A stretch of 17,285 bases of DNA from the IMG/VR virus record IMGVR_UViG_2698536369_000020; one strand, given 5' to 3'. Each line of letters starts with the position of its first letter. Position 1 is the stretch's first letter. A program made the translations under genes and the position numbers. Shown here in pieces: positions 1 through 17,099 of this stretch. The notes beneath the pieces were generated by a model. It had not been told where the DNA came from. It saw only the letters and a list, made by a program, of their open reading frames with translations, and ran no database searches. The DNA is from a virus (taxonomy: Duplodnaviria; Heunggongvirae; Uroviricota; Caudoviricetes).

Positions 1-981
1 ATGAACGCAATAATATCGCCCGATTATTACTATGTTCTTACCGTTGCTGGTCAGTCTAATGCCATGGCGTATGGCGAAGGACTGCCATTACCGGACAGGG
101 AAGATGCGCCTCATCCCAGAATTAAACAATTAGCGAGATTTGCGCATACGCATCCCGGAGGCCCGTCATGTCACTTTAACGACATTATTCCACTGACTCA
201 CTGCCCACACGATGTTCAGGATATGCAGGGTTATCACCATCCTCTGGCAACGAATCATCAAACACAGTACGGCACCGTTGGCCAGGCACTGCATATTGCA
301 CGGAAATTACTGCCCTTCATTCCTGATAATGCAGGGATTCTCATCGTTCCGTGTTGCCGTGGCGGATCGGCTTTTACCGCGGGTAGCGAAGGGACATATT
401 CAGAACGGCACGGAGCCAGCCATGATGCTTGTCGTTGGGGAACGGATACTCCGCTGTACCAGGATGTAGTCAGCAGAACGCGAGCCGCACTGGCAAAAAA
501 TCCGCAGAACAAATTCCTCGGCGTATGCTGGATGCAAGGCGAATTTGACTTAATGACCAGTGACTACGCGTCACACCCTCAACACTTTAATCATATGGTT
601 GAAGCCTTTCGTAGGGATCTAAAACAATACCATTCTCAGCTTAATAATATTACTGACGCGCCGTGGTTTTGCGGCGATACCACCTGGTACTGGAAAGAAA
701 ATTTCCCTCATGCGTATGAAGTTATTTATGGCAATTATCAAAATAATGTTTTAGCCAATATTATTTTCGTCGACTTCCAGCAACAAGGTGAAAGAGGACT
801 GACGAACGCGCCTGATGAAGACCCGGACGATTTAAGCACGGGATATTACGGTTCAGCGTACCGGTCACCGGAGAACTGGACGACGGCACTGCGAAGCAGT
901 CATTTCAGCTCAGCAGCCCGTCGGGGGATTATTTCTGACAAGTTTGTAGAAGCAATTTTGCAGTTTTGGCGCGAAAGGTGA
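1..981 (+). CDS. nanS: N-acetyl-9-O-acetylneuraminate esterase (SGNH-type sialate O-acetylesterase), 326 aa
   Basis: Full-length 326-aa ORF starting MNAIISPDYYYVLTVAGQSNAMAYGEG, with the GQSN esterase motif; I recognise it as E. coli YjhS/NanS, the last gene of the nanCMS operon, which lies on the far side of the leuX island in K-12. Identity is from memory, not alignment. Confidence 0.8.
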   Translation: MNAIISPDYYYVLTVAGQSNAMAYGEGLPLPDREDAPHPRIKQLARFAHTHPGGPSCHFNDIIPLTHCPHDVQDMQGYHHPLATNHQTQYGTVGQALHIARKLLPFIPDNAGILIVPCCRGGSAFTAGSEGTYSERHGASHDACRWGTDTPLYQDVVSRTRAALAKNPQNKFLGVCWMQGEFDLMTSDYASHPQHFNHMVEAFRRDLKQYHSQLNNITDAPWFCGDTTWYWKENFPHAYEVIYGNYQNNVLANIIFVDFQQQGERGLTNAPDEDPDDLSTGYYGSAYRSPENWTTALRSSHFSSAARRGIISDKFVEAILQFWRER

Positions 982-1192
982 GCGTTCATTAATTTGATTT
1001 ATTCGCATCCATCAGCGCTTTTAACTCCTCCGGCGTAAACGGTGGTTTGCGTCGGTACAACATCGCATGGCAATTAGGGCACACAGGCAGCAAAAAAACA
1101 AATGAGATCAAAGTAATATATCTTCACTTGCAGGCTTGAACAGCAGAAAATTTGCGAGCATGATCGCAATTATTTCACTGCCAGGGATATCA

Positions 1193-2065
1193 ATGGCTTC
1201 CAGTAAATCGCTACAGCAGGCAATTGCCAATATAAAAATCTGGCACAAGGGTGAACAGCGCGCGCCGCATAAGCCATTGTTATTGCTATACGTATTAGCG
1301 GGATACCTGCATGGACATCCGCGCCTTTTCGATTATGGCTCGGAAATCTACGAACCTCTGCACAGTTTACTGGAACGTTTTGGGCCACAGCGTTCACAGT
1401 ACCGACCTGATATGCCGTTCTGGCGATTACAAGGCGACGGATTCTGGCAATTACACAATGCCGAGCTTTGCTCAACAGCAGGGAGCAGCCGACAACCGCC
1501 AGTGAAGGAACTGAACGAATACCACGTTGCAGGCGGTTTCGATGAACAGCACTACGCCCTGGTAACCGGCAATAAAAAACTCATCAATACTCTGGCGCAA
1601 CAGATACTCGAAGCGCACTTCACCGAGAGTATTCAGGAAGAAATTGCTGACGAGCTGGGTTTTGATCTCCAGCAAATCCGTAAACAGCGCGACCCGTTAT
1701 TTCGCAAAAATGTATTACGTGCTTATAAATACCAGTGCGCGATATGTGGCTTTAATATGCGCCACGACGACACCACCGTCGCGCTGGAAGCGGCGCATAT
1801 AAAATGGAAACAGCACGGCGGTCCTTGTGAAATTCCTAATGGTCTGGCGCTTTGTGCAATACACCATAAAGCCTTTGATAAAGGATCGATTGGCCTGGAT
1901 GAAAATATGCGGGTACTGGTCTCGGATGCGGTAAACGGCGGAGGGATCGTTGAGAGATTATTCTGGGATTTTGACGGGAAAACTATTGCGTTGCCACAGG
2001 TGCGTAAAAATTACCCTTTTGAGGGGTTTGTGGAGTGGCATCGAAAAGAGGTTTTTAGGGGGTGA
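1193..2065 (+). CDS. HNH-family (HNH_2-like) endonuclease, possibly a modification-dependent restriction enzyme
   Basis: C-terminal motif block CAICGF...AAHIKW...NGLALCAIHHKAFDKG fits the HNH / HNH_2 nuclease signature (Cys pair, catalytic His, N..LC..HH..FD.G). N-terminal ~150 aa is a separate domain (HKPLLLLYVLAGY...). Start chosen at the ATG at 1193, which has an AGGGA Shine-Dalgarno ~6 nt upstream; the ORF track extends to a TTG at 1136. No adjacent methyltransferase. Confidence 0.6.
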   Translation: MASSKSLQQAIANIKIWHKGEQRAPHKPLLLLYVLAGYLHGHPRLFDYGSEIYEPLHSLLERFGPQRSQYRPDMPFWRLQGDGFWQLHNAELCSTAGSSRQPPVKELNEYHVAGGFDEQHYALVTGNKKLINTLAQQILEAHFTESIQEEIADELGFDLQQIRKQRDPLFRKNVLRAYKYQCAICGFNMRHDDTTVALEAAHIKWKQHGGPCEIPNGLALCAIHHKAFDKGSIGLDENMRVLVSDAVNGGGIVERLFWDFDGKTIALPQVRKNYPFEGFVEWHRKEVFRG

Positions 2066-2106
2066 GGTTGATAACTATCGCAGTATGTTCAATATTGCTG
2101 ACATAA

Positions 2107-2289
2107 TCAGTGCAGGATCTTGCCGCTAGTTTACAACTCGCCTTCGATAGCGGCGCAAAACGAGTTCTGTTGCCGATATCCTCGGCTATGGATATTCCAA
2201 CAGTTCCGGCAGAGTTGTTTACCAAGTTTCAGGTAAGTTTTTACTCAGAACCGGTTGATGCGGTTTATAAGGCGCTGGATGTGAATTAA
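2107..2289 (+). pseudogene. Start-less C-terminal remnant of a Lon-protease-like gene (BrxL-like?)
   Basis: Open frame without a start codon encodes ...LQLAFDSGAKRVLLPISSAMDIPTVPAELFTKFQVSFYSEPVDAVYKALDVN*, which matches the pattern of the extreme C-terminus of Lon-type protease domains (A..GiK.VLlP..n..dl..iP......l.v.fv..v.ea....AL). Too short for the ORF track; sits just downstream of the HNH gene. Confidence 0.35.
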
Positions 2290-2621
2290 CACATTCCTCA
2301 GCTTATTTACAAAAGGATTATTCCCATTTGATATAATATCAGTGCCAATTTACTTTTTTCAATGGAATATATCTCGGCTAAATAACAATAAAACTTATCG
2401 CTAATGGATTAAATAAACAATTTTCTAATTCATTTCACCACCTTTGATATAGAAATTGATGGTGTTGTCGCTGCCATTGCTTATGGTGATGATAAAATCC
2501 ACGTTTCTGGATCGTTGCGTAGAAAATCATCACTACCTTGATATTTTGATGCGATATGATCATACCGTTCCGTAGTACCAATTTCAATTTCAGGCTAACC
2601 CCCAACATTAAAAAAATTAGA

Positions 2622-2665
2622 GTTATTCACTAATTATATTATCAATAATATAATCAGTGAATAAC
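2622..2665 (-). terminator. Long imperfect palindrome downstream of the two-gene operon, putative rho-independent terminator
   Basis: GTTATTCACT...(24-nt AT palindromic loop)...AGTGAATAAC gives 10-bp perfect arms, 23 nt past the stop of the 246-aa gene; on the minus strand it is followed within ~10 nt by a T7 run. Confidence 0.4.
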
Positions 2666-2687
2666 ATGGACTATATAATAAATTGCT

Positions 2688-3428
2688 CTAATCATTTCCC
2701 TTACGAATATATGGGCCAAAAGCCCAAGAATCATAATAAGGGTGATGGACTAGTTTTTCATTAAATCGAACACTATAAGTTAATTTTTTTATATTTTTAC
2801 GTACAGCATTAATACTGGGCAAAGAGGAAAGATAATCTATAAACTTATCGATAGTGATTTCCCCTTCGCAACACTCAAACCCATCAATGATATTTTTCGC
2901 CATTTTTCCATTTTCATTTTTTTGATATATCACTCCAGGTATTCGTTGAAAAAAACTAGATAATGCATATTTGTCCGCTACATATGTATCATCCACATGA
3001 TATTTCCCACCGAGCATAGTTGTAGTAACAATAAGCTTATACACACCTTTGGGTTGCCATGTTGATGGTAGTTCGAATTCTTTAATGATCACATCAAGAT
3101 GATTAAGATAATGTTCAGAAATTCGATTTATTTGTTGAAAATAAGAACGCATAAATTTATTATTATGATCATGTATTAATGAGCTATCTCCAACGATGTT
3201 ACACACTTGCTGATAGTACTTACCATAATATATTGGTTGACCATTTGATTTTAGTTCTGTAAAAATCAAACAATCATCCAGGAGAATCACGCAATCGCAC
3301 TGATAATTAGCATAAACATCAATTGGAGGAGCTTTAATCCCCGCATCACGAACTTGTTTTATAAATTGTTGCTCATGAAATCGCCCTTTACTTGCTTGAG
3401 AAATTTTTTTGGAACCAAATAATGACAT
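2688..3428 (-). CDS. Hypothetical protein with NERD / PD-(D/E)xK-like nuclease signature, 246 aa (distal gene of two-gene operon)
   Basis: N-terminal region GRFHEQQ...VYANYQCDCVILLDDCLIFTELKSNGQPIYYG fits the NERD-type layout (G..xE, then acidic residue, hydrophobic strand, E-x-K). Its ATG overlaps the stop of the upstream gene (TAATG at 3426-3430), indicating translational coupling. Strongly AT-rich. Confidence 0.55.
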   Translation of the reverse strand: MSLFGSKKISQASKGRFHEQQFIKQVRDAGIKAPPIDVYANYQCDCVILLDDCLIFTELKSNGQPIYYGKYYQQVCNIVGDSSLIHDHNNKFMRSYFQQINRISEHYLNHLDVIIKEFELPSTWQPKGVYKLIVTTTMLGGKYHVDDTYVADKYALSSFFQRIPGVIYQKNENGKMAKNIIDGFECCEGEITIDKFIDYLSSLPSINAVRKNIKKLTYSVRFNEKLVHHPYYDSWAFGPYIRKGND

Positions 3429-4726
3429 TAGACTGAGCTATTTGCTATTAATGCAGGCATTAAGCATAAACCGTCCATACAGGGAATAAATGGGCAATCA
3501 TTAAGATCATGTGATTTTGAATTGAAGGTAAAATAATCTATCAGTTTTTTTGCTGCATCTGCTGCAATCCCCTTACGTTGAAAGAATGATAACCAACTCT
3601 CACGGCTTTTTATGATCAGCCAGCGATCCAACTGTAGGGGTATAGGTTTTGTCGATGAAAATCTTTTGCTCATTTCTTCTTTAGATAACTCGACTAAACA
3701 TTGATAAGCGTGCACCCAATTAAATAATGATATATTCCCATATTCTTCATGAAGGTCATCAGGAGACATATTTTCCAACTCGCTTAGATGAAATGAGCTA
3801 AAAACGCCATCAGAATTTAAGTAAGATGGCATATGATCCTTTACCCAACTATTTAGATGAAAATGTTTGTTACTAAATTCATGAACTTCGCTATATAGAT
3901 GTGACGCTCTCATCATTAGTCTATTTCTTGCAATCTCATAATCTCGGTATAAACAAAAACTATCAACCTCAAGAGAGTAAATGTTATTATCCAATTTTGT
4001 AAATACTGCACTACTTAGTCTGAAAAAGTCTCTTACTCTGCTTAATGAGTCAAAAACATTCCACTCATTAAGGTACCCTCCCATTGAAAGCAAGGTTTGT
4101 TTATTCACACAAGAAGTTAGTTTCAATGGCCCATGAGTCCGTAAATAAGAAAATATTCTTCCGGTGTAATTGGCTACCTCATCAAATGCCCTATCGATAA
4201 CTCGAAAATATTCGATATCAGGTTCAGCATGAATATTAATATTTTCAGAAACGATAAATAATGGAAAAATCCTCTTCATTTTTTTAGGATCATTGACCAC
4301 AACCAAGGATGATAATGATGATAAAAACATCTCACAAAACATGATGAGATTAAGTATTAATGCATGTGATTTTTTTGTGTTTTTACGCCAAATACCAGCA
4401 CATTTTGTAGCCGCAAAAAAAGAATTATTGATATCATGCATAATTTTACATTGACTCTCGAACTCAGAGATTAGTTCAATGTTATCAGGAAATGAGTTTA
4501 CTAGCTCATTAATACATTTTTTGAATGTATTGTTATACTCAACTTCAGTCTGAACTGAAAATCTATTATAATAGATGGAAGATATTCTCAGCACATCCAA
4601 GGCGATATCTATACTAATATCATCTCTTTTTATGTACTCACAAAAAAAAGAACAAAACTGTTTCGGGTCGTTAGCAAGATTACTGATTCTAGTGGTATCA
4701 TAAACTTTTTCCATTTTTCCATACAT
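3428..4726 (-). CDS. Hypothetical protein, 432 aa, no recognisable family (proximal gene of two-gene operon)
   Basis: Long uninterrupted ORF in strongly AT-rich DNA; no Walker A, HNH, PD-(D/E)xK or other motif that I can recognise; one ~23-residue hydrophobic stretch (HALILNLIMFCEMFLSSLSSLVVV). A second in-frame ATG four codons downstream has the AGGA box at a more plausible spacing (~11 nt). Confidence 0.55.
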   Translation of the reverse strand: MYGKMEKVYDTTRISNLANDPKQFCSFFCEYIKRDDISIDIALDVLRISSIYYNRFSVQTEVEYNNTFKKCINELVNSFPDNIELISEFESQCKIMHDINNSFFAATKCAGIWRKNTKKSHALILNLIMFCEMFLSSLSSLVVVNDPKKMKRIFPLFIVSENINIHAEPDIEYFRVIDRAFDEVANYTGRIFSYLRTHGPLKLTSCVNKQTLLSMGGYLNEWNVFDSLSRVRDFFRLSSAVFTKLDNNIYSLEVDSFCLYRDYEIARNRLMMRASHLYSEVHEFSNKHFHLNSWVKDHMPSYLNSDGVFSSFHLSELENMSPDDLHEEYGNISLFNWVHAYQCLVELSKEEMSKRFSSTKPIPLQLDRWLIIKSRESWLSFFQRKGIAADAAKKLIDYFTFNSKSHDLNDCPFIPCMDGLCLMPALIANSSV

Positions 4727-5403
4727 CCTATTGTCTAAATTACTATAAAACTAGCCACTTAACTAATAATTATAAATTTCATCTTTTACACCTTGCATTT
4801 TTATAACCAATGAAATCTACAACAAGCAACTGATGGATAATACGATATTGGTCGCATTTAATGGCATGGTAGCAAAGTTTTCATCACATACCTCCTTTGC
4901 ACCAGAATAAACGCCAGAGACCTGAAATTGCGAGTACACTACAGAAATTGTACTGCCGGTCCCATCAGCATAAAACCATAGTTACACAGGTAATCATCAT
5001 TATTCGCCAAGATAATAAATATTATTCAGTAGAATAGCGTTCTCAGGTGGTCAGTAAAATTGTCTTCAACAAGATGTCTGCGCATCTCGTCTGCTAGCCC
5101 TACATAACTGCTCTCGACCGAAACTATTTATTGAATATTCACCAAGGTGGGCGTGGAGACAAAATGACGTCTTTTGATATTAGCTACCTGAGCCACATGG
5201 TCAAAACGTTCAAATAGCATAGCGAAACCACCCTGCCCACGTAATGTGGACGATGCAGCTTCCAGCCAGAGCAAACTTGGGACCATCGACTACAAAATGA
5301 AGAATACTGAACTGCTTTTCTGGCAGGCCTATATACTGCACGGATATGGGTGATTTCAGACACAAAAAAAGCCGCTCTTGAGCGACTCGATTTGCATACG
5401 GTG

Positions 5404-5422
5404 TGGTGCGAAGGCCGGACTC
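5404..5422. repeat. attR: 19-bp direct repeat of the leuX 3' end (P4-type att core)
   Basis: TGGTGCGAAGGCCGGACTC at 5404-5422 versus TGGTGCCGAAGGCCGGACTC at 17080-17099 inside the tRNA 3' end (one C missing). The two copies bracket the whole P4-like gene set. Confidence 0.7.
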
Positions 5423-5476
5423 AAATATCAAAATAAGTCAATGATAAAAAACAAATAATAAAAAACAAAAATGAAA

Positions 5477-5497
5477 TATGCCCCCTTTTGTGCCCCC
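5477..5497. repeat. Two TGCCCCC motifs near attR, candidate integrase arm-type binding sites
   Basis: ATATGCCCCC ttttg TGCCCCCA; the same heptamer recurs three times next to attL/int start (16918-16964). Confidence 0.3.
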
Positions 5498-5567
5498 ATT
5501 GTTTTTCTGACCAATCTATTTTCAACCCATCAACAAATCGGAAAGTTAACTAATTTTTAATCAGTGA

Positions 5568-5594
5568 GTTTGGATCCGTAGCTCGGATCCAAAC
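5568..5594. other. Perfect hairpin: 11-bp stem, 5-nt loop
   Basis: GTTTGGATCCG tagct CGGATCCAAAC; located between attR and the crr-like repeats; no adjacent U-run typical of an intrinsic terminator. Confidence 0.4.
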
Positions 5595-5620
5595 CAGTGC
5601 ATCTTTTACCCACATAAAAA

Positions 5621-5915
5621 ATTTTTTTTCGGAAGAACTGTTCACACTGTTCACCCTTTGATTTTCTCCTTTTATTTCAGAGTAATAGATGGTGAATAAT
5701 GGGTGAAGGGTGAACATTCGATTCTTCACCTCCGGCATTCTGCCGATGTGACTTGTGCAGGGGATTAATCCTCCGCACTGAAATCACACAGGGAGAAAAA
5801 AGTTTTTTTTGATTTGATTGTTCACACTGTTCACCTTTCGTTTTTCTCTTTTAATTTCAGTGTGATAACGGGTGAATATACGGTGAAGGGTGAACAGTGG
5901 ATTGTTCACCTGCGG
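5621..5915. repeat. crr-like region: two ~120-bp direct repeats, each carrying TGTTCACC-type iterons
   Basis: Unit 1 ~5621-5745 and unit 2 ~5797-5915 both read A6-T8, TGTTCACACTGTTCACC, ~50 nt, GGTGAAnnnnGGTGAAGGGTGAACA, TTCACC. Lies immediately downstream of the alpha gene. Matches my recollection that P4 crr is two 120-bp direct repeats with type-I iterons bound by alpha protein. Confidence 0.6.
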
Positions 5916-5969
5916 GGAATTCAGGGATAAAAAAAGACCGGCAGATGCCGGTCAGGTGGGTCATGAGGG

Positions 5970-8303
5970 TCAGGTTGTTGCAGGGTCGTCACATTTTGGC
6001 AGCCAGTCGCCGTAGCTTTCCTCTTTCAGCGTCAGGTTGGTCTGTATCCCCTGTTTGGTATGGCGCTTCTCGTAATTCAGTCCGTATTCCTTCAGCATCA
6101 CCGGCAGCCCCAGCCCGAACATTTTCAGACTGAGTACATTCCGGTAGCCGTTTGCCTCCATGTAGGCCAGATAGGCGTGATAGAGGTATTTACGGTAATT
6201 ACGCGGGATGATACTGGCGTTCCCCATATACATGCCGCTGGTCTGCGGCAGGGTTTCCAGATAGCCGATAAAATCAAACGTCGGGTCGGCATCCCGTTTG
6301 ATGTTCAGTGCCTCGTCTGAGTTCTGCTGGGACTGAAGCAGTGACCGGGCGAGCATCGGGTCGCTGAACTTCTGCATCAGGTGACGCACGATGACCGCCA
6401 GCTCGCGGGTGATTTTGTCCTTAAGCTGCGGGTCGCGCTCCTGCGGGGCTATCTGTTCCGGGAAGTGAATAATCACCCGCCGGCGTGACACGCCGCCGCT
6501 GCGGTCGGTGAAGCGCATCGGGTTATTGTTGACGGCCAGAATCACCGCCGGGATATGCGTGGAGTACGCATCCCGGTATTTCGGGTCAACGGACACCGCA
6601 TCGCCGCCGGTGATGGCCTTGAGTCCGGCTCCGTCGCCGCTCCATTTTTCCTGGTCCGGCAGGCGTATCAGTGAGAAGCCAGTTAACGCGGCACGTTCAC
6701 GCGGGGATTCCAGCGTCTCGATGGTGGCCGACGTGGCGTTATCCTCCCCGGCCAGCAGGGTGGCTATTTCGGCCATGATACTTTTGCCGCTGCCGCCGGG
6801 ACCGGTCACCTCCAGAAAGAGCTGCCAGTCGTAGCGGTTTGCCAGCACCATAAACAGTGCGGCCAGAATCACGTCGCGTTTTTCCGCACGACCACCGGCG
6901 GCACGGTCAAGCCAGCGCCAGAACGCGGGAGCGTGGGTTTCCAGCATTTCCCCTTCCACCGGCGGGGTGAAATCCACATCGCACAGGGTGCGCATCCAGT
7001 GTGACGGACTGTGCGGGTGGAACGAGCCGTTCTGCGTGTCGAGCACGCCGTTACGAAAGCCAATCAGGCGGCGGGAGGGGGCTTCCTGCTGCGGAATAAT
7101 CAGCTTCAGGGTGTCCACCACGGAGGCCACCTTCCCGGAGGAGAACGGCGCGCGCAGCCGCTGAAACAGCCCGGCCACATCCCGGGCAAAGTCCTGTGGT
7201 GGCAGCACCTTCCAGACACCATTTTCATAACGGGACAGAAGCTGGCCGTTGGCATCGACCGCGAGCGCCTCGCCGTAATGCTCATAGATACGCATGGCCT
7301 TTTCGCTGGTACTCATGGCGGAAAACTCCGCTTCACTCATGGTGTCGAACGGGCTTTCAGCCGGTGGCCGGATGGCATCGTAAATGGCCTTACGGGTGGC
7401 CTCCCCGCCGTACTGCGTGAAGGCATCATTCCAGTCACCGAAGACCGGTGGCAGGGCAACAACACCTTCACACGCATCTGCGGCTGCGGCGGCTTTTTTC
7501 TGGCCGTCACCGCTGAGGTCACGGTCAGCAGCAAGGACAATCTGACAGGCCGGATGCTTCTGCCGGGCAAGGCTGGCCAGAGAAAGGAGGTTCACGGAAG
7601 AAAGCGCCACCATCACCGTTTCACCGGTCAGGTGATGTACGGTAAGTGCGGTCGCGTATCCCTCCGCTATCCACAGACGTTTTCCGGCCTGATTCTGTCC
7701 TTCAAGGGTGTGACAGGTGCCCCTGACCTGTCCGCCTTTCAGGGTGCGCTTACGGCCGTCAGCACTGATTAACTGAAGGTTAACCAGTTCGCCGCTGTCG
7801 TCATACAGTGGCACCACAAGGTCACCGGCGCGCCAGCTCACGCCACCGGCTCTGTGTGTGCCGGTCAGCATCCGGCATTCCCGGCCGGGAAAGCCCTTGC
7901 GGGTCAGGTAGGCGTTACCGGTTCCGGGACGGGTTTTTGCCATCAGGGTTTGTGCCAGTGCGGCGGCGTTCTTCCGGGCGGCTTCTGTTTCAGCACCGGC
8001 GGCGGCCGTCACTGTCGGGTCAGCCGGGGGCAGGCTGCCGGTCACGGCAGCCACCTTTGCGGCCGCGTCGGACGGAGAGACACCAAACACCTTTTCAACC
8101 AGTTTCAGGCCGTCACCGGCACCACACTGATTGCAGTACCAGGTGCCGCGCCCCTCCCTGTCATCAAAACGGAAGCGGTCACTCCCGCCACAGACCGGAC
8201 AGGGCTGATGACGGTTTTTCAGCACCTGAATCCCCAGCGCCGGGAGAATACGCGGCCAGTGGCCGAGCGCATGGCTGACGGTGGCGGTTACGTTCATTTT
8301 CAT
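5970..8303 (-). CDS. P4 alpha-like primase-helicase, 777 aa
   Basis: N-terminal zinc-binding primase motif CPVCGGSDRFRFDD...GTWYCNQCGAGDG, central TOPRIM-like region, C-terminal Walker A GPGGSGKS; length equals that recalled for P4 alpha. Confidence 0.85.
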   Translation of the reverse strand: MKMNVTATVSHALGHWPRILPALGIQVLKNRHQPCPVCGGSDRFRFDDREGRGTWYCNQCGAGDGLKLVEKVFGVSPSDAAAKVAAVTGSLPPADPTVTAAAGAETEAARKNAAALAQTLMAKTRPGTGNAYLTRKGFPGRECRMLTGTHRAGGVSWRAGDLVVPLYDDSGELVNLQLISADGRKRTLKGGQVRGTCHTLEGQNQAGKRLWIAEGYATALTVHHLTGETVMVALSSVNLLSLASLARQKHPACQIVLAADRDLSGDGQKKAAAAADACEGVVALPPVFGDWNDAFTQYGGEATRKAIYDAIRPPAESPFDTMSEAEFSAMSTSEKAMRIYEHYGEALAVDANGQLLSRYENGVWKVLPPQDFARDVAGLFQRLRAPFSSGKVASVVDTLKLIIPQQEAPSRRLIGFRNGVLDTQNGSFHPHSPSHWMRTLCDVDFTPPVEGEMLETHAPAFWRWLDRAAGGRAEKRDVILAALFMVLANRYDWQLFLEVTGPGGSGKSIMAEIATLLAGEDNATSATIETLESPRERAALTGFSLIRLPDQEKWSGDGAGLKAITGGDAVSVDPKYRDAYSTHIPAVILAVNNNPMRFTDRSGGVSRRRVIIHFPEQIAPQERDPQLKDKITRELAVIVRHLMQKFSDPMLARSLLQSQQNSDEALNIKRDADPTFDFIGYLETLPQTSGMYMGNASIIPRNYRKYLYHAYLAYMEANGYRNVLSLKMFGLGLPVMLKEYGLNYEKRHTKQGIQTNLTLKEESYGDWLPKCDDPATT

Positions 8304-8317
8304 GGTGTTGTTCTCCT

Positions 8318-8638
8318 TCAGTGCAGTACCGGCGCTTTTATGTGACGGGCACAGAGTTCATCCATCACAACCAGCCCGAGAAAGGACAGCGACGGCGCGG
8401 CCTTCAGGGGGCCGGATTCCATTAAATCTTCCAGCAGGGCACAGGCTATCTGACGCCCTTTTTCCTCACCGTGCTGGCGCAGATAAAAGCCCTCCAGCTC
8501 AGCGGCGATGGCCGCCTCCAGTGATTCAAGGGTGAGATGCGGGTAGCGGTGCTGACGTTCGCACACGGTCAGCCAGGCACAGGCGACAGCGCGACGGTAA
8601 AGGGCAGCGCGTAAGACGGGCGGTAAGGGTGTTTTCAT
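8318..8638 (-). CDS. P4 orf106-like small protein, 106 aa
   Basis: ORF directly upstream of alpha in the same operon orientation; size and position match the small ORF between orf151 and alpha in P4-like elements. Function unknown. Confidence 0.45.
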
Positions 8639-8773
8639 TTGTTTTCCTCCCTGTGACAGATGACTGCATTCCGTGCCGGTTGTATTAACTGATAAGGCAT
8701 ATCTGCGTCTCCTGAAGACGTGCGTATCCCTGCGCGAATACGCACATTTAATTTTTCGGGTGTCGTTTTTTAA

Positions 8774-9229
8774 TTACAGATAATTGCGGTAACTGTTATC
8801 CGGGGTGATTTCCGGGTCAGGCTCCGTGCGGGGAATTTCCCGCCATTCCCGCGCCACCGGTGCCGCCCGGCTGGCCGGAACAGTGTCCTGCGGGTAAATA
8901 TCCAGATATTTCTCCCGCCATTTCTGTAATTCCGGGTCTCCGGCCATTTCTTTCAGTACCGCATGCCGGTTTACGGGGCTGCGTTTAAACAGGTCAGGAC
9001 GGTCACAGGTAAATTCCCGCAGAAAACGCCCCAGCGGGATGTCTGTGGTGCGCCCGTCTGCGAGGATACGCACAAGGATACTGAATTTACGGCGGTACGG
9101 GTTCCAGACAATGTCCGGGCAGCGGTACGGCATTTCCCACGGAATACCGTCTTCCAGAATGCCGACCACGGCCACATCGGGAAAACCGGCAGAACGGTAA
9201 ATCTCACCGGGCTGGGGAAAATCAAACAT
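8774..9229 (-). CDS. P4 orf151-like protein, 151 aa
   Basis: Size and position in the leftward operon match P4 orf151; start overlaps the upstream eps-like stop by a few nt. Confidence 0.45.
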   Translation of the reverse strand: MFDFPQPGEIYRSAGFPDVAVVGILEDGIPWEMPYRCPDIVWNPYRRKFSILVRILADGRTTDIPLGRFLREFTCDRPDLFKRSPVNRHAVLKEMAGDPELQKWREKYLDIYPQDTVPASRAAPVAREWREIPRTEPDPEITPDNSYRNYL

Positions 9230-9509
9230 GCGTCTTGTCTCCCCGGTCTTTCTGCTGGGCGAGAAAATCGCGGCACAGGCCTTTGGCTTTCAGCTCATTC
9301 AGCACAAAATCAATATCTTCATTCAGGTAGCTGAAAATATGCGGAATGTAGAGCTGATGCAGGCCGGAGAGTTCACGGTGAATCAAATCACCCCCAACAA
9401 ACTGGGATACGGCGCTGGCGCGGTTGAGCTTATGGTAAGCCTCAATGCTGAGGTGTTCACGGGCGTCATGACGCGCTGAGACGGTCTGAGGGGCTTTTTT
9501 ATTACGCAC
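9222..9509 (-). CDS. eps-like small protein (~95 aa from a GTG start)
   Basis: GTG at 9509-9507 preceded by GGAGG at ~6 nt; begins [20 protein letters not shown]...; the GTG overlaps the stop of the upstream kil-like ORF. The ORF track's 177-aa version runs through the upstream gene and has no ribosome-binding site. Confidence 0.4.
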
Positions 9510-9699
9510 GGGACACCTCCACCACCGGCAGACGGGCAGCAAGGGAGAGCACATAGTCACGGACAAGGGAACGGCGGGCGCTGCGTTCATCACCGGCGAC
9601 GGTGCGAAGCATGCAGATACGGGGATGACGGTCTGCGCGACGGACAGCCGCAAACACAAAGACAAATTCAGGGTGTGAGGGGGTAAGGGTTGTAGCCAT
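9502..9699 (-). CDS. kil-like small protein, 65 aa (first gene after the immunity region)
   Basis: ATG at 9699-9697 with AAGGAGG ~8 nt upstream; [16 protein letters not shown]...; position right after the CI/seq elements matches P4 kil. Assignment is by synteny only. Confidence 0.4.
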
Positions 9700-9710
9700 G
9701 ATGGCAGCCT

Positions 9711-9752
9711 CCTTGAAGTAACAGTTACAGCTACCACTGGAGTTCCTACGCT
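9711..9752 (-). promoter_or_regulatory. seqC-like target element of the P4-type RNA immunity system
   Basis: CCTTGAAGTAAC ... GTTCCTACGC; same two boxes recur at 9933-9958; the candidate CI region between them contains the complementary GTAGGAA; this copy abuts the kil ribosome-binding site. Confidence 0.4.
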
Positions 9753-9754
9753 CA

Positions 9755-9845
9755 TGGGTGGTAGCCCGGACGGGGGTAGGAATACCGGCCTTCAAGGAAA
9801 CCGGCCAGCCCGAAGGCTGCCCCGCCCGGACCACCATTATCTGAC
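9755..9845 (-). ncRNA. CI-RNA-like structured immunity RNA (boundaries approximate)
   Basis: GC-rich segment with terminal complementarity (GGTGGTAGCCCGG ... CCGGACCACC) and an internal GGTAGGAATACC box complementary to the flanking seq elements; lies between the two seq copies, as P4 cI lies between seqA and seqC. Confidence 0.35.
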
Positions 9846-9932
9846 AGAGGCTACGGTTTAAAAACCACAGCCAGAAAAACAGGTGTGCCGAAGCAACGAC
9901 GTAAAAAAAGACGCATGGCGCGTCATATGTCG

Positions 9933-9958
9933 CCTTGAAGTAACTCGGGTTCCTACGC
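9933..9958 (-). promoter_or_regulatory. seqA-like target element (upstream copy)
   Basis: CCTTGAAGTAAC tcgg GTTCCTACGC, direct repeat of the element at 9711-9752. Confidence 0.4.
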
Positions 9959-10052
9959 CCGGCTGCCGATTTTGCGGCAGCGGAAAAACTATATCCGCAA
10001 ATGCCGGAAAAAGGCAAGCCAGAAAAAGGGAGTTTTTGCAGAACAGGCATCA

Positions 10053-10319
10053 TCATGCGTCGTACCCCCGTTTGCGTCCGGCAATGCGTCCGGCCATCCA
10101 TGCGGTGACTTCAGAGTGCAGCCAGGCCACATTTTTACCGCCAAGACTCACCTGCGGCGGAAATTCCCCCTTACGGATGAGTTCATAGATGGTCGAGCGT
10201 GACAGGCCGCACAGGTGCATCACTTCCGGCAGACGTAAAAAACGCTCCTGCGTGATGTCCGGCAGCGGCATCAGTGGCGTAACAGGGGCGGGAGACGGGG
10301 AAGAAAAAACAGCTTGCAT
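10053..10319 (-). CDS. Vis / AlpA-family phage regulatory DNA-binding protein, 88 aa
   Basis: HTH region [51 protein letters not shown] is characteristic of AlpA/Vis; 88 aa, transcribed divergently from sid, as P4 vis (orf88) is. Confidence 0.7.
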
Positions 10320-10596
10320 CGGGCTACCTCGTTAATGTCCATACAGCACCGGATAAGTCCGTCCGGCTTCGGGTAGCGCTTTATTTTGTGAATATTTTCA
10401 GCAGACGCAACAGGGGGAATTTGTTCCGGCAACCTTACAATGGCTGTGTGTTTTTTATCCATCTGGACTGGAAGGGTCTCAAAGGGTTCTGAAGGAACTG
10501 TAATTTTTTATAGTGAAATGCAAATTGTTTTTCCTTATTTATTTCAGTGAATTAATAAAAATAAACAGTAATAAACAGCATAAAAAGCCCATCAAC

Positions 10597-10704
10597 GGGT
10601 GAACAGTGGTGAACAGACGGTGAACAGTCATTACTGCGATTGTTCACCCTTTAACTTACTGTATTACTTATCTTTTTTCTTATGGTGAACAGAGGTGAAC
10701 AGTA
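10597..10704. repeat. ori-like cluster of six TGTTCACC-type iterons
   Basis: GGTGAACAG t GGTGAACAG ac GGTGAACAG (three direct copies at ~11-bp spacing), one inverted copy (TGTTCACCC at ~10641), then GGTGAACAG a GGTGAACAG; between vis and sid. Confidence 0.6.
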
Positions 10705-10870
10705 AAATATAAAAAAACAAACAGTAAGCCGGTTTTTCCTGCGACCTTTTCCTGGCTTGCCGGTCTGAGGATGAGTCTCCTGTGTCAGGGCTGGCACATC
10801 TGCAATGCGTCGTGTTGTTGTCCGGTGTACGTCACAATTTTCTCAACCTGAAGTGACGAGGAGCCGGAAA

Positions 10871-11605
10871 ATGTCTGACAACACCATCCCTGAATATCTG
10901 CAACCCGCGCTGGCACAACTGGAAAAGGCCAGAGCCGCCCATCTTGAGAACGCCCGCCTGATGGATGAGACCGTCACGGCCATTGAACGGGCAGAGCAGG
11001 AAAAAAATGCGCTGACGCAGGCCGACGGAAACGATGCTGACGACTGGCGCACGGCCTTTCGTGCAGCCGGTGGTGTCCTGAGCGACGAGCTGAAACAGCG
11101 CCACATTGAGCGCGTGGCACGCCGGGAGCTGGTACAGGAATATGACAATCTGGCCGTGGTGCTGAATTTTGAACGCGAACGCCTGAAAGGGGCGTGTGAC
11201 AGCACGGCCACCGCCTACCGGAAGGCACATCATCACCTTCTGAGTCTGTATGCAGAGCATGAGCTGGAACACGCCCTGAATGAAACGTGTGAGGCGCTTG
11301 TCCGGGCAATGCATCTGAGCATTCTGGTACAGGAAAATCCGCTCGCCAACACCACCGGGCATCAGGGCTACGTCGCACCCGATAAAGCTGTCATGCAGCA
11401 GGTGAAATCATCGCTGGAACAGAAAATAAAACAGATGCAAATCAGCCTCACCGGCGAGCCGGTTCTCCGGCTGACCGGACTGTCAGCGGCAACACTCCCG
11501 CACATGGATTATGAGGTGGCAGGCACACCGGCACAGCGCAAGGTGTGGCAGGACAAAATAGACCAGCAGGGAGCAGTGCTTAAGGCCAGAGGACTGCTGT
11601 CATGA
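10871..11605 (+). CDS. sid: Sid-like external capsid-size scaffold protein, 244 aa
   Basis: ATG at 10871 preceded by GAGGAG; 244 aa from this start equals the recalled length of P4 Sid; first gene of a sid-delta-psu-sized triplet; coiled-coil-like composition. The ORF track's 266-aa version starts 22 codons upstream without a ribosome-binding site. Confidence 0.6.
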   Translation: MSDNTIPEYLQPALAQLEKARAAHLENARLMDETVTAIERAEQEKNALTQADGNDADDWRTAFRAAGGVLSDELKQRHIERVARRELVQEYDNLAVVLNFERERLKGACDSTATAYRKAHHHLLSLYAEHELEHALNETCEALVRAMHLSILVQENPLANTTGHQGYVAPDKAVMQQVKSSLEQKIKQMQISLTGEPVLRLTGLSAATLPHMDYEVAGTPAQRKVWQDKIDQQGAVLKARGLLS

Positions 11606-12102
11606 TTTACTGCCCGTCGTGTGGACATGTTGCTCACACCCGTCGCGCACATTTCATGGACGATGGCACCAAGATAATGATTGCACAGTGCCGGAATATT
11701 TATTGCTCTGCGACATTTGAAGCGAGTGAAAGCTTTTTCTCTGACTGTAAAGATTCAGGAATGGAATACATTTCAGGCAAACAGAGATACCGCGATTCAC
11801 TGACTTCTGCCTCCGGCAGTATGAAACGCCCGAAAAGAATGCTTGTTACCGGATATTGTTGTCGGAGATGTAAAGGCCTTGCACTGTCAAGAACATCGCG
11901 GCGTCTGTCTCAGGAAGTCACCGAGCGTTTTTATGTGTGCACGGATCCGGGCTGTGGTCTGGTGTTTAAAACGCTTCAGACCATCAACCGCTTCATTGTC
12001 CGCCCGGTCACGCCGGACGAACTGGCAGAAAGCCTGCATGAAAAACAGGAACTGCCGCCAGTACGGTTAAAAACACAATCATATTCGCTGCGTCTGGAAT
12101 GA
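11602..12102 (+). CDS. Delta-like late transcription activator (tandem Ogr-type zinc fingers), 166 aa
   Basis: N-terminal half CPSCGHVAHTRR...CRNIYCSATFEASES mirrors the P2 Ogr zinc-finger signature (CP.C.H.AH.R...C.N..CSATF) and a second, degenerate copy follows (C..C...RTSR...C....C..VF); start overlaps the sid stop (ATGA). Confidence 0.75.
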   Translation: MIYCPSCGHVAHTRRAHFMDDGTKIMIAQCRNIYCSATFEASESFFSDCKDSGMEYISGKQRYRDSLTSASGSMKRPKRMLVTGYCCRRCKGLALSRTSRRLSQEVTERFYVCTDPGCGLVFKTLQTINRFIVRPVTPDELAESLHEKQELPPVRLKTQSYSLRLE

Positions 12103-12175
12103 GGGCTGCCGGTTAACCCCGGCCGTCGCCGCACACCGTATTTTTATTCTTCAGCATGATGAGAAAGAGATAACG

Positions 12176-12748
12176 ATGGAAAGCACAGCCTTACAGCAGG
12201 CCTTTGACACCTGTCAGAATAACAAAGCAGCATGGCTGCAACGCAAAAATGAGCTGGCTGCGGCCGAACAGGAATATCTGCGGCTTCTGTCCGGGGAAGG
12301 CAGAAACGTCAGTCGCCTGGACGAATTACGCAATATTATCGAAGTCAGAAAATGGCAGGTGAATCAGGCCGCCGGTCGTTATATTCGTTCGCATGAAGCC
12401 GTTCAGCACATCAGCATCCGCGACCGGCTGAATGATTTTATGCAGCAGCACGGCACAGCACTGGCGGCGGCACTGGCACCGGAGCTGATGGGATACAGTG
12501 AGCTGACGGCCATTGCCCGAAACTGTGCCATACAGCGTGCCACAGATGCCCTGCGTGAAGCCCTTCTGTCCTGGCTTGCGAAGGGGGAAAAAATTAATTA
12601 TTCCGCACAGGATAGCGACATTTTAACGACCATCGGATTCAGGCCTGACGCGGCTTCGGTGGATGACAGCCGTGAAAAATTCACCCCTGCGCAGAACATG
12701 ATTTTTTCGCGTAAAAGTGCGCAACTGGCATCACATCAGTCTGTGTAA
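12176..12748 (+). CDS. psu: Psu-like polarity-suppression / capsid-decoration protein, 190 aa
   Basis: 190-aa ORF immediately after delta, followed by a terminator and cos site; size and position match P4 Psu. Confidence 0.6.
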   Translation: MESTALQQAFDTCQNNKAAWLQRKNELAAAEQEYLRLLSGEGRNVSRLDELRNIIEVRKWQVNQAAGRYIRSHEAVQHISIRDRLNDFMQQHGTALAAALAPELMGYSELTAIARNCAIQRATDALREALLSWLAKGEKINYSAQDSDILTTIGFRPDAASVDDSREKFTPAQNMIFSRKSAQLASHQSV

Positions 12749-12784
12749 AACTCCCCGAAAATCCGTCCGATTTTACTGAAAAAA

Positions 12785-12822
12785 GCCATGCATCGATAAG
12801 GTGCATGGCTTTGCATGCGTTT
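12785..12822 (+). terminator. Putative intrinsic terminator of the sid-delta-psu operon
   Basis: Hairpin GCCATGCA tcgataagg TGCATGGC followed by TTTGCATGCGTTTT, ~37 nt after the psu stop. Confidence 0.4.
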
Positions 12823-12912
12823 TCCTGCCTCATTTTCTGCAGACCGCGCCATTCCCGGCGCGGCCTGAGCGTGTCAGTGCAACTGCATTAAAACCGCCCT
12901 GCAAAGCGGGCG

Positions 12913-12931
12913 GGCGAGGCGGGGAAAGCAC
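12913..12931. other. cos site (P2/P4-type 19-nt cohesive end sequence)
   Basis: GGCGAGGCGGGGAAAGCAC matches the cohesive-end sequence I recall for P2/P4; located between psu and the hotspot, as in P4. Confidence 0.55.
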
Positions 12932-13010
12932 TGCGCGCCAGTATCTATTAATTTACATTCATAGAATCCTTGCAAAGCAGATTCTGCTAAGATCCCTGAA
13001 ACTTGAGTTG

Positions 13011-13028
13011 AGGATTAGTGTTAATCCT
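13011..13028. promoter_or_regulatory. Palindrome upstream of the methyltransferase gene, candidate operator
   Basis: AGGATTA gtgt TAATCCT (7-bp arms), ~35 bp upstream of the methyltransferase start; a weaker GCAGA t TCTGC palindrome lies at 12977-12987. Confidence 0.3.
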
Positions 13029-13064
13029 TTACAATATCCTAGTATTTGGCTGCTAAGTATGTAG

Positions 13065-14318
13065 GTGATTATTTTGTCTAGTAAAAAGTTTATTTCGCTA
13101 TTTAGTGGCGCAATGGGGTTAGACTTAGGTCTCGAAGAGGCTGGCTTTGAGCTCGTAGCTTGCGTTGAACAAGATAAGGCAGCTCTAAAAACAATTAAAA
13201 CTAATAAGCCAAATCTTGCTGTATTCGAAGGTAGTATTGTTGACTGCACTGGCTCTGAATTATTAGCACTAGCCGGAGTGAATGATAAAGAAGAAATAGA
13301 TTTAGTTGCTGGCGGTCCACCGTGCCAAGCATTTAGTGTTTTTGGAAATAGGTTAGGGCTAGAAGATGCCAGAGGGCAGCTTATTTTCGAATATGTTCGA
13401 ATGATTAAAGAATTAAACCCAAAAGTTTTCGTAATGGAAAACGTACGCGGTTTATTATCAATGTCTATAGTTCCAGCTTCTAAAAAGAAGGAGCTATCAG
13501 GCACAATCGCAGCATCTGCTTTCGAAAAAGGCTCTCTAATAAAAAGGGTAGCTAACGAATTCAATAAACTAGGTTATCATGTGGATTGCTTTGTAGTTAA
13601 TGCTGCCAACTATGGAGCCCCACAAATTAGGGAGCGTGTTATTTTAATTGGTAATCGCTTCGGAATGATAGCCAATTTCGCCTCCCCTTTATTCAGCAAT
13701 AGAGTAGAAGATAATCTTCCGCCATTCAAAACGCTGGGGGATGTAATTGGCCCAGAGAGCGGTTTTGTTGATAAATATCCAGAAGTCATGAATTTTTCGC
13801 CAAGAAAACTGAAATATCTTTCAATGGTTCCACCTGGCGGAAACTGGAGAAGCATGCCAGAAGAAATGCAAAAAGAATCTATGGGAAAAAGCTGGTATCT
13901 TAAAGGAGGAAGAAGTGCTTACTGGAGGAAACTATCTTTCCAGTTTCCTTCACCCACAGTAGTAACAATGCCAAATCATGCGGGAACAAGTATGTGCCAC
14001 CCAACTGAACTTAGAGCTATTTCTGTTGGTGAAGCTGCCGCGATACAAGAGTTTCCTGATTACTGGAAATTTGAAGGTACAACTACAGAAAAATTCAGAC
14101 AGATAGGTAACGCAGTTCCTGTCCGGTTAGGTAAAGTTGCAGGGGAAGCTGCTATGGAACTTCTTCATCGTATACAAGAAAATAAGGTTGCTGATTTAGT
14201 AACTCCAGATTATATAGAAACCCATATTAGACCGCATATTAGAACCAGATCTTTCTTTAAAAATGGTCAAGCATATAGTGGAGATGTTTCTTACTACGAC
14301 CTTGAAGAAGAAGTTTAG
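13065..14318 (+). CDS. DNA (cytosine-5)-methyltransferase, type II modification enzyme
   Basis: Canonical C5-MTase motifs in order: motif I LFSGAMGLDLG, motif IV GGPPCQAFS, motif VI ENVRGL, motif X QIGNAVPV, with a variable target-recognition region between. Low-GC. Exact start (GTG 13065 or a nearby codon) is uncertain. Confidence 0.85.
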   Translation: MIILSSKKFISLFSGAMGLDLGLEEAGFELVACVEQDKAALKTIKTNKPNLAVFEGSIVDCTGSELLALAGVNDKEEIDLVAGGPPCQAFSVFGNRLGLEDARGQLIFEYVRMIKELNPKVFVMENVRGLLSMSIVPASKKKELSGTIAASAFEKGSLIKRVANEFNKLGYHVDCFVVNAANYGAPQIRERVILIGNRFGMIANFASPLFSNRVEDNLPPFKTLGDVIGPESGFVDKYPEVMNFSPRKLKYLSMVPPGGNWRSMPEEMQKESMGKSWYLKGGRSAYWRKLSFQFPSPTVVTMPNHAGTSMCHPTELRAISVGEAAAIQEFPDYWKFEGTTTEKFRQIGNAVPVRLGKVAGEAAMELLHRIQENKVADLVTPDYIETHIRPHIRTRSFFKNGQAYSGDVSYYDLEEEV

Positions 14319-14328
14319 AATTAGTCAT

Positions 14329-14357
14329 AAAAAAAACTGGCCCTTAGGCCAGTTTTT
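14329..14357. terminator. Bidirectional intrinsic terminator between the convergent methyltransferase and endonuclease genes
   Basis: AAAAAAACTGGCC ctta GGCCAGTTTTTT: GC stem flanked by an A-run on one side and a T-run on the other, so it can terminate both converging transcripts. Confidence 0.6.
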
Positions 14358-15175
14358 TATTCATTAATCATTTCAAGTAATTTGTGCCATTGAGCTGTGC
14401 CATCAGCATTTAGAACTTGCTCATTGTACTTCTTTGCAACATGTTCTTTGAATTTTTCAATAAGATCTTTATTTTTTTCTTTTATATCTGCTTCTTTTAC
14501 AGCACGTTCTATACCTTCAAGTACCCAATGCTGGGTTTCAGCCTCACCATTGTTAAGCCATGACCAAAATTCTTTACCAGCATATACATGCACTTTGTCA
14601 CGAATATCAATCACATTGTGGTTTGCACCAGTATTGATACCTCGTAAGATTCTATACTTATCAGTTAATCCATGGCTATTTCCATAAAAAACCCCAACCA
14701 CTATATTGTCAGCCACTCCAGGATAATTATTTATGATTTCGTGAAATGCTTTATTTAGTTGGACAGCCATCGTCAATTGAATAGTCCATTTCCCTGCCTT
14801 AAGAGATAAAAGCTCAATTCTACCATCATCCCTTTGTATTACATGATCTATTTCATCAAAGCAAGGGTGTATAAAAGGCTCGTTGGCAGCTCTATAACTT
14901 TTATCTAATTTATATGCACCAAACACTCTAGGAAGTATTTTTTCATCAATCAATTTTCCAAAGCCAGTATCATGCCCAGTCATTAAATGCTTAGCAATTA
15001 TTGCTTCAACTAGTTCATCAAAATCATTAAGGGAATGATAATCAAAAATAAAAGGGGTCATAAACGGATTTATGGACATTGTTTCTGACATTAACTTTGT
15101 TAGTTTACTTTGTCTCTCCAAAATCCACCACGCAGCACACTCCTGCACTTTAAGTATAACTTCTTGCTTATTCAT
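14357..15175 (-). CDS. Putative type II restriction endonuclease, 272 aa
   Basis: Assigned by context: convergent with a C5-MTase, and its start overlaps the stop of an upstream controller-protein gene (classic C-R-M layout). I do not recognise the family from sequence alone. Confidence 0.6.
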   Translation of the reverse strand: MNKQEVILKVQECAAWWILERQSKLTKLMSETMSINPFMTPFIFDYHSLNDFDELVEAIIAKHLMTGHDTGFGKLIDEKILPRVFGAYKLDKSYRAANEPFIHPCFDEIDHVIQRDDGRIELLSLKAGKWTIQLTMAVQLNKAFHEIINNYPGVADNIVVGVFYGNSHGLTDKYRILRGINTGANHNVIDIRDKVHVYAGKEFWSWLNNGEAETQHWVLEGIERAVKEADIKEKNKDLIEKFKEHVAKKYNEQVLNADGTAQWHKLLEMINE

Positions 15176-15473
15176 GACTTATAAATCCATCTGATAAATT
15201 TTTTAATAAAATTAACCGCTGTTTTTTGTCTAGTTTATTAATCAACAAAATAATTTCTGCCAAGTCATCTTCGGGTGTGTAAAAATATGAGACAGGGACA
15301 TTTAATAAATCAGCGATTTTTTTAGTAAGTGAAAAATCGGGCATATGTTTACCTTTCTCATATTGATTCATGCGAGCACTGGCAGAGCATTCATCAATGC
15401 CAACAAGTATTCCCAACTGTTCTTGAGTTAACCCAGCATTCAATCGGGCTTTTTTTAACCTAATTGGAAGCAT
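15168..15473 (-). CDS. Controller (C) protein, XRE-family helix-turn-helix regulator, ~101 aa
   Basis: HTH motif LTQEQLGILVGIDECSASARMNQYEKGKHMPDFSLTKKIADLLNVPVSYFY; start placed at the internal ATG (15473-15471), which has an AGAGGA Shine-Dalgarno ~8 nt upstream; the ORF track's upstream start at 15551 would put the operator palindrome inside the coding region. Confidence 0.65.
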   Translation of the reverse strand: MLPIRLKKARLNAGLTQEQLGILVGIDECSASARMNQYEKGKHMPDFSLTKKIADLLNVPVSYFYTPEDDLAEIILLINKLDKKQRLILLKNLSDGFISHE

Positions 15474-15522
15474 CGAAAATCCTCTTTTTGGAGGTAGGTT
15501 TGCACTTTTTACACTCGAAATT

Positions 15523-15539
15523 ACTAAGGAATACTTAGT
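15523..15539. promoter_or_regulatory. Candidate C-box operator palindrome
   Basis: ACTAAG gaata CTTAGT, ~50 bp upstream of the preferred C-protein start. Confidence 0.35.
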
Positions 15540-15640
15540 TTTTAAAAGCAATGGAATAATTGCCTAAGAAGTTGTTAAGTGAAGGTTAAAAAGACACAAG
15601 CATTGCTGTTGATGAAGGCTAGTTCAAACTAAGCGGAGAC

Positions 15641-16927: not shown

Positions 16928-16964
16928 TTCTAATCGAAGTTAAGATGCCCCCAATTATGCCCCC
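16918..16964. repeat. Three TGCCCCC heptamers (one inverted, two direct) between int start and attL, candidate Int arm-type sites
   Basis: GGGGGCA (16918-16924), ATGCCCCC (16945-16952), ATGCCCCC (16957-16964); same motif as near attR. Confidence 0.3.
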
Positions 16965-17079
16965 AATGACATCCGGATTTCAACGGACAACCTCGGACGA
17001 TCCAGGATCGTAGAAATCGCTGAAAGTATTGATTTTTAATGGATAATCGGACTTACTCGGATGGACTTGGAAGTAATAA

Positions 17080-17099
17080 TGGTGCCGAAGGCCGGACTC
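17080..17099. repeat. attL core within the 3' end of leuX
   Basis: TGGTGCCGAAGGCCGGACTC, directly repeated (19/20) at 5404-5422. Confidence 0.7.

Follow-up and report, generated by a model that had tools for sequence, protein, structure and literature searches.

A decayed 3' fragment of brxL beside an HNH gene between nanS and leuX, the probable scar of a lost type-1 BREX operon

The stretch of DNA analysed here, referred to as the window, comprises 17,285 nucleotides of a tailed-phage record (IMG/VR IMGVR_UViG_2698536369_000020), with nanS (1-981, plus strand) at its left end and the tRNA-Leu(CAA) gene leuX (17080-17164, minus strand) at its right end. Of the defence hotspots of E. coli, the one anchored at leuX (#37) is the most occupied, and BREX is among its known residents (PMC10121019, PMC12707154); Hochhauser et al. 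(2023; PMC10121019) found BREX at no hotspot other than #1 and #37, and it makes up ~9% of hotspot-37 content according to an EcoSal Plus review (PMC12707154). An intact plus-strand gene at 1193-2065 (stop codon at 2063-2065) encodes a ScoMcrA-like HNH restriction endonuclease of 290 aa (Pfam HNH_2, E=5e-10; PADLOC HNH, E=1e-24). Its product in homologous loci is named ‘phosphorothioated DNA-binding restriction endonuclease’ by PGAP/RefSeq, and the HNH gene of identical length in two related loci, here called L012 and L013, carries DNA-SBD_ScoMcrA plus HNH_2. This gene is a conserved anchor, and variable cargo starts beside it. The interval between nanS and the HNH gene holds a deletion scar of its own (989-1094, minus strand), consisting of the last ~35 codons (ending …LLPVCPNCHAMLYRRKPPFTPEELKALMDANKSN and a stop codon) of a second ScoMcrA_N+HNH gene, divergently oriented, of which L013, L012 and E2348/69 have an intact copy (216 aa); the rest of that gene was removed by a 571-bp deletion between direct repeats ACAGGCAGCAAA.

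Directly 3' of the HNH gene, a frame that lies 10-45 bp past its stop codon is open over 2107-2289 and translates as SVQDLAASLQLAFDSGAKRVLLPISSAMDIPTVPAELFTKFQVSFYSEPVDAVYKALDVN followed by a stop codon. A preliminary description of this DNA, made from the letters alone, placed a C-terminal gene remnant at exactly this site and quoted two motifs from it, both of which occur in the translation. Comparison of 2107-2286 with protein families revealed a match to positions 617-675 of 675 in the NCBIfam model of BrxL (TIGR02653; E=1.2e-24, 86.7 bits) and to positions 622-680 of 680 in the PADLOC BrxL model (E=8e-20), while residues 621-678 of 679 in the solved Acinetobacter BrxL (PDB 8EMH/8EMC/8EIL) match the fragment with E about 1e-21 (1.4e-21 for 8EIL), and 56/59 residues (95%) of its tail are identical to E. 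coli BrxL. In contrast, the Pfam model of the Lon C-terminal domain (PF05362, Lon_C) did not match the fragment significantly (E=0.28, 11.1 bits against a cut-off of 21.1 bits), nor did the best-matching real Lon structure (E=0.52). The earlier reading of a Lon-type protease C-terminus is therefore narrowed rather than lost, since similarity to BrxL lies far above chance and similarity to generic Lon is only marginal. Judged by these alignments, the family of the fragment is BrxL specifically and not protease-type Lon, of which the Lon_C match including the catalytic Ser-Lys dyad region (S16, PF05362) is missing.

The same comparisons delimit what the fragment can be. Full-length BrxL is recognized by a curated TIGR02653 cut-off of 628 bits and by an N-terminal domain, an AAA+ ATPase and a Lon-like C-terminal domain, a set that the fragment lacks, and the DNA upstream in frame is the HNH gene, not brxL. 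The genes brxA, brxB, brxC, pglX and pglZ are absent from the window, as judged from its open reading frames and from the annotation of near-identical loci, so the five genes that accompany brxL in a type-1 BREX system are not found here. The preliminary description also held that the frame has no start codon, which is correct for ATG; an in-frame GTG exists at 2110, from which gene callers give a 59-aa open reading frame, and inspection of the sequence upstream of this GTG found no Shine-Dalgarno sequence. RefSeq/PGAP tags 2110-2289 as a pseudogene (‘hypothetical protein’ or ‘peptidase’, ‘incomplete; missing N-terminus’), some sources name the 59-aa frame ‘ATP-dependent Lon protease’, and gene callers list it on at least 1000 contigs (P0007). 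A word-indexed protein search with the 59-aa fragment returned only short fragments and no full-length BrxL, and made variant and truncated stubs visible.

Alignment with the intact brxL genes of two E. coli loci, L001 (strain W150) and L002 (O111:NM 08-4377), indicated that brxL-derived DNA runs from 2077 (start about 2076/2077) to 2289 and corresponds to BrxL codons 606-694, so that the span of 2107-2289 proposed earlier lies inside the relic and misses its beginning; the whole scar, counted with the relic of a downstream gene described below, occupies 2077-2575. The upstream part of the stub (2077-2117, plus strand; 6/42 bases mismatched) represents codons 606-618 and matches the intact BrxL segment ending …IALCSILLAKPVQ, in which the intact sequence LIALCSILLAKPVQ has become ITIAVCSILLT*SVQ. 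The interruption is a TAA codon at 2104-2106 where intact brxL has AAA, and because of it the frame had seemed open only from 2107. The same codon is still CAA in another carrier of the scar (P0001/L013), and the nonsense mutation therefore came later. Between 2117 and 2118, 57 bp (19 codons, E619-Q637) are absent; in intact brxL this stretch is flanked by two copies of the 8-bp GTGCAGGA, of which the window keeps one (2110-2117), and the loss would be explained by slippage or by a microhomology deletion.

The downstream part of the stub (2118-2289, plus strand), which gave the HMM and PDB matches, represents codons 638-694 and the stop codon, and is 94% identical in DNA to intact E. coli brxL; 9 of the 10 differing bases fall at third codon positions. 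Three amino acids are replaced relative to intact E. coli BrxL. The change of G to D affects a residue that is invariant across all intact BrxL compared, including alleles only 88% identical in DNA and those of other genera; the change of M to I also affects an invariant residue, but it is a third-position change that may be allelic; and D to E is a natural variant, as E is found in intact Klebsiella and Erwinia BrxL. With its TAA codon, its 57-bp deletion and neither an ATG nor a Shine-Dalgarno sequence, the stub has no uninterrupted frame with a start codon and translation signals.

The decay continues to the right of the stub. Positions 2290-2388 (plus strand) are a relic of the spacer between brxL and the next gene, aligned with L002 and a further locus, L006 (83 matches, 15 mismatches), and this spacer has a 19-bp deletion directly after the brxL stop codon. 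Positions 2389-2575 (plus strand) are the 5' 187 bp of a gene for a PLD-like (DrmC-like) nuclease (163 matches, 23 mismatches and 4 gaps), whose intact counterpart after brxL is of PLDc_2 / DrmC-like type; the start codon of the relic is ATA for ATG, and three-frame translation places what remains of the protein in all three frames. Homology ends at about 2575, which is the right breakpoint of the scar. A search of 2066-2600 found no Rfam family and no terminator-like site.

Other DNA fills the window from this breakpoint to leuX. A perfect AT-rich palindrome with a 20-bp stem (GTTATTCACTGATTATATTA…TAATATAATTAGTGAATAAC; 2622-2665), followed by a T-run on the minus strand, lies between the breakpoint and the stop codon of an AT-rich orphan gene, and may be the terminator of that gene or the end of an element; a MIR860 Rfam match on the palindrome (2623-2663, E=0.86) was dismissed as meaningless. 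The orphan gene (2688-4726, minus strand) has no Pfam domain and is a single 678-aa reading frame in 536, ESDR8 and L013; a 10-bp deletion at ~3431 breaks the copy in the window into frames of 432 and 246 aa, and this copy, which also has a 12-bp insertion at 4715-4726, is probably a fresh pseudogene. A P4-like satellite occupies 5409-17102 within leuX, with 17 bp of the tRNA 3' end repeated at its two borders (5409-5425 and 17086-17102), and the breakpoint at 2575 was rejected as its attR, as this repeat lies at 5409-5425 and 2576-5408 is separate DNA. The satellite encodes an integrase (15641-16927, minus strand) and a primase-helicase (5970-8303, minus strand) and also carries Icd-like, delta/ogr and psu genes. 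A DNA cytosine methyltransferase (13065-14318, plus strand) and a PDDEXK nuclease (14357-15175, minus strand) occupy its variable slot, where related strains have TIR-domain or other cargo. Just inside its attR end, upstream of the primase gene, are two 120-nt direct repeats (5616-5735 and 5796-5915) that are 79% identical and 180 bp apart, with shorter related 20-mers at 5489 and 10641, and these may be iterons or P4 ori/crr-like repeats.

The intact arrangement from which the stub derives is present at the same flanks in other strains, in line with the preliminary description, which took the fragment as the possible scar of a larger defence locus that had been deleted or overwritten. In O111:NM 08-4377 the nanS-HNH flank is followed, at the site of the stub, by a complete type-1 BREX operon, with the order nanM, nanS', HNH, PDC-S11, brxA, brxB, brxC, pglX, pglZ, brxL and PLD, and past PLD by IS3', AbiEi/AbiEii, further genes, int' and leuX. 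The gene right after the HNH gene encodes a PDC-S11 / NucS-like nuclease (332 aa, minus strand), brxA and brxB correspond to DUF1819 and DUF1788, and strain W150 likewise carries the BREX genes between the HNH gene and brxL. Blastn places window positions 1-2074 at L002 positions 1269-3342 (97.8% identity) and 2110-2572 at 18001-18484; since brxL codon I606 lies at L002 17911, what is missing from the window is L002 3343-17910, or 14.57 kb (±3 bp). Within this segment are the PDC-S11 gene, five BREX genes in full and 87% of brxL, so that the proposed deletion now has breakpoints mapped to about 3 bp and an intact counterpart elsewhere, while the brxL and PLD relics left in the window bear inactivating lesions.

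At the left junction (2066-2076), base-level alignment indicates that homology to the sequence downstream of HNH in BREX-bearing strains stops at 2074 (…GGTTGATAA), and the junction reads …GGTTGATAA|C|TATCGC…. No IS element or long repeat is present there, which suggests a simple illegitimate deletion; at most 1-2 bp of microhomology are shared, and the exact base is blurred by sequence divergence. The junction is identical in 536, ECamp52, ESDR8, UTI89, L012 and L013, and in these six loci the scar is collinear without indels, with different DNA to its right in L012. The first four and L013 differ from the window at 1-2/224 bases in 2066-2289 and at 10-23/873 in the HNH gene, and these few differences, together with the collinearity among carriers, point to one origin.

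The scar is common in E. coli. When window positions 2020-2160 were used as a query at 80% or more coverage, the junction of the HNH gene with truncated brxL, including the internal deletion, was found in 361/5426 complete E. coli genomes (6.7%), among them UTI89, 536, IHE3034, APEC strains and an O145 strain; 340 of these also share the right side up to 2700, and the other 21 are without it. Intact brxL of this type occurs in 345 of the same 5426 genomes, and the intact junction between the HNH and PDC-S11 genes in 431, which sets the number with BREX after the HNH gene at up to 431.

Other strains have lost the operon in other ways. One stub of 89 bp adjoins IS1 in a locus from which everything from fimI to brxL is deleted (L006), one of 1251 bp adjoins IS3 (L007), and one of 330 bp adjoins IS911 at a different locus (L005); as these IS1-, IS3- and IS911-bounded stubs are independent, BREX loss by 5' truncation recurs. 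In E2348/69, McrBC directly follows the HNH gene. The proposal of repeated gene turnover at this hotspot is thus borne out by McrBC in that strain, BREX in up to 431 genomes, the scar in 361 and the stubs that end at IS elements. A further observation concerns the other side of the HNH gene: in ECamp52 (L003, 1-14754) and ESDR8 (L008, 1-1506), which have the scar, the nanS/nanM side is itself replaced, and a type II Zorya system (zorA2, zorB2, zorE) and very large DEAD/DEAH helicase genes adjoin the nanM fragment before the HNH gene, so that the hotspot turns over on both HNH flanks.

It could be asked whether the frame from GTG 2110 has become a small gene, a 59-aa mini-protein of the BrxL C-terminus that might, for example, bind the ring-ring dimerization surface of an incoming or co-resident BrxL. 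Its 59 codons are open in every carrier aligned and called on all those contigs, the frequency of the scar could hint at retention, and the fragment holds FTKFQ, whose T658 and Q661 mediate ring dimerization in Acinetobacter BrxL (PMC10164562; by alignment). However, the BrxL C-terminal domain (residues 498-679, ~180 residues) folds as a unit and occupies the equator of a DNA-binding AAA+ chamber made of two rings (PMC10164562), and the stub retains about 70 residues of it (<40% for the 59-aa fragment); having neither the AAA+ nor the N-terminal domain, the stub cannot form a DNA-binding ring. The sequence variation of the frame also speaks against a product: G to D, and M to I if it is not allelic, affects a residue invariant in the intact BrxL compared, about 28 amino-acid versions of the stub exist in databases, some with radical changes (S25W, F12C, P22L, V42E) and some truncated (P0042, P0048), and changes within carriers number 2 nonsynonymous and 1 synonymous. 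Together with the lack of an ATG and a Shine-Dalgarno sequence, and with a neighbouring PLD relic that is plainly decaying, these features make an exapted small gene most improbable.

The sequence of the stub itself is not entirely that of a gene that was cut and then decayed. When the final 172 bp of the stub are compared with each intact E. coli allele in turn, 10-13 sites differ, 9-12 of them at third codon positions, and at least 9/10 differences at third positions would arise with a chance of about 4e-4 if they were spread evenly over the three positions (own calculation). This bias argues that the divergence arose while brxL was still a working gene, not by decay. The locus L012 (GCA_903932005.1) agrees exactly in its left junction and 57-bp deletion (at 6001-6228), has intact-like bases at all ten differing sites, and continues with unrelated DNA right behind the brxL stop codon, which calls for an unsampled parental allele or recombination within the stub instead of simple deletion followed by decay. 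The simplest reconciliation would be a crossover or gene conversion in the stub between a scar chromosome and an incoming BREX-PLD cassette with a divergent allele, a proposal drawn from this single comparison. No intact brxL with a 3' end of the window type was found in E. coli genomes, in plasmids (best 83.6%) or in one genome per species, where the best matches (92% in amino acids, about 80% in DNA) came from Franconibacter and Klebsiella; either the parental allele is therefore unsampled or the differences are a mixture of allelic ones and decay. L012 also has a nanM that is only 89.7% identical to E. coli nanM and no fim genes between uxuA and nanM, and its features as a whole suggest that the scar is old or has passed between lineages.

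This mosaic bears on another conceivable role, in which the stub would be kept as a non-coding element, either as the 3' UTR or terminator of the HNH gene or as a patch of homology that anchors exchange of the cargo downstream. The high conservation of the BrxL tail among alleles makes such a patch possible, and the combination of a junction and internal deletion in common with L012 and a divergent 3' half fits at least one crossover inside the stub, the 3' half of the window being an allele that diverged under coding constraint. The same left junction occurs in at least two right-hand contexts, the PLD relic of the window and the unrelated DNA of L012, and it lacks the right side of the window in 21/361 carriers; moreover, as the DNA from the HNH stop codon to 2600 has no terminator, transcription of the HNH gene probably extends into the stub. 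Yet there is no Rfam match or conserved hairpin in it, the 19-bp deletion after the stop codon took part of the native downstream sequence, the mosaic reading depends on L012 as its one informative comparison, and service as a recombination substrate would be a passive result of homology, not a selected function. Retention as a non-coding element is accordingly very unlikely. Even the broader proposition that the stub is not inert, whether by forming with the HNH gene a standing patch of homology for incoming BREX/PLD DNA beside which cargo to the right is swapped repeatedly, or by giving a 59-codon peptide that disturbs BrxL ring dimerization, is quite improbable.

The preferred reading, to which a probability of roughly 0.93 is assigned, is that a lost type-1 BREX operon has left a dead 3' fragment of its last gene, brxL, at 2077-2289, and that this fragment has no activity alone. 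In the history proposed for it, an ancestor would have carried PDC-S11, brxA, brxB, brxC, pglX, pglZ, brxL and PLD directly after the phosphorothioate-dependent HNH gene, and one illegitimate deletion of ~14.57 kb would have fused brxL from codon 606 onward to the DNA 9-10 bp beyond the HNH stop codon, taking the whole BREX machinery and 87% of brxL. Later damage to the stub would comprise the 57-bp slippage deletion between the GTGCAGGA repeats, the nonsense mutation, and at least one substitution (G to D) at an invariant residue. A second event would have cut the PLD gene after 187 bp and brought unrelated AT-rich DNA (2576-5408) alongside.

If this history is correct, ~7% of complete E. coli genomes, including those of the uropathogens UTI89 and 536, once had BREX beside the HNH gene on the nanS side and lost it in one shared deletion. 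The locus would thus provide a concrete and datable case of gain and loss in the leuX defence hotspot, with four separate relics within 4 kb, a kind of loss history that defence-system finders will miss. It is important to add that the stub is an ordinary scar in a known hotspot, already annotated automatically as a partial pseudogene, and represents no new system or mechanism; what RefSeq lists here as a ‘hypothetical protein, partial’ or ‘peptidase’ pseudogene should carry the label brxL remnant.

Compared with known systems, the stub shares with BrxL (TIGR02653; 8EMH/8EMC/8EIL) the sequence of the last 59 residues and the position that brxL has in intact BREX-1 loci beside the same HNH gene. 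Of the 694 codons it keeps only 606-618 and 638-694; it has lost the N-terminal domain and the AAA+ ATPase entirely and the C-terminal domain for the most part, and with its in-frame stop and 19-codon internal deletion it is a pseudogene fragment and not a functional member of the family. Its relation to the Lon S16 domain (PF05362) is a distant one at the level of fold, through the C-terminal domain of BrxL (PMC10164562); BrxL itself is without a Lon catalytic or protease motif (PMC10164562), and the GPS-type segment is located upstream of the part that the stub retains. The other brxL 3' stubs of E. coli, annotated as partial ‘peptidase’ or ‘S16 family serine protease’, are relics of the same type, in which 5' brxL and the rest of BREX were lost, often in the same leuX region and with a PLD gene downstream; theirs end at IS elements after 89, 330 or 1251 bp, whereas the stub in the window adjoins the HNH gene, has no IS element and carries an extra internal deletion. 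No paper on this particular stub was found in the literature, and the nearest mention is the engineered 'brxL remnant of Salmonella StySA (Zaworski et al., 2022; PMC9009780). That remnant is likewise the 3' portion of a brxL gene whose 5' portion was removed, but at 707-807 nt it spans the complete Lon_C-like domain, is expressed from a strong cat promoter and had cellular effects, whereas the stub described here is natural, 213 nt long, without a promoter of its own, and decayed.
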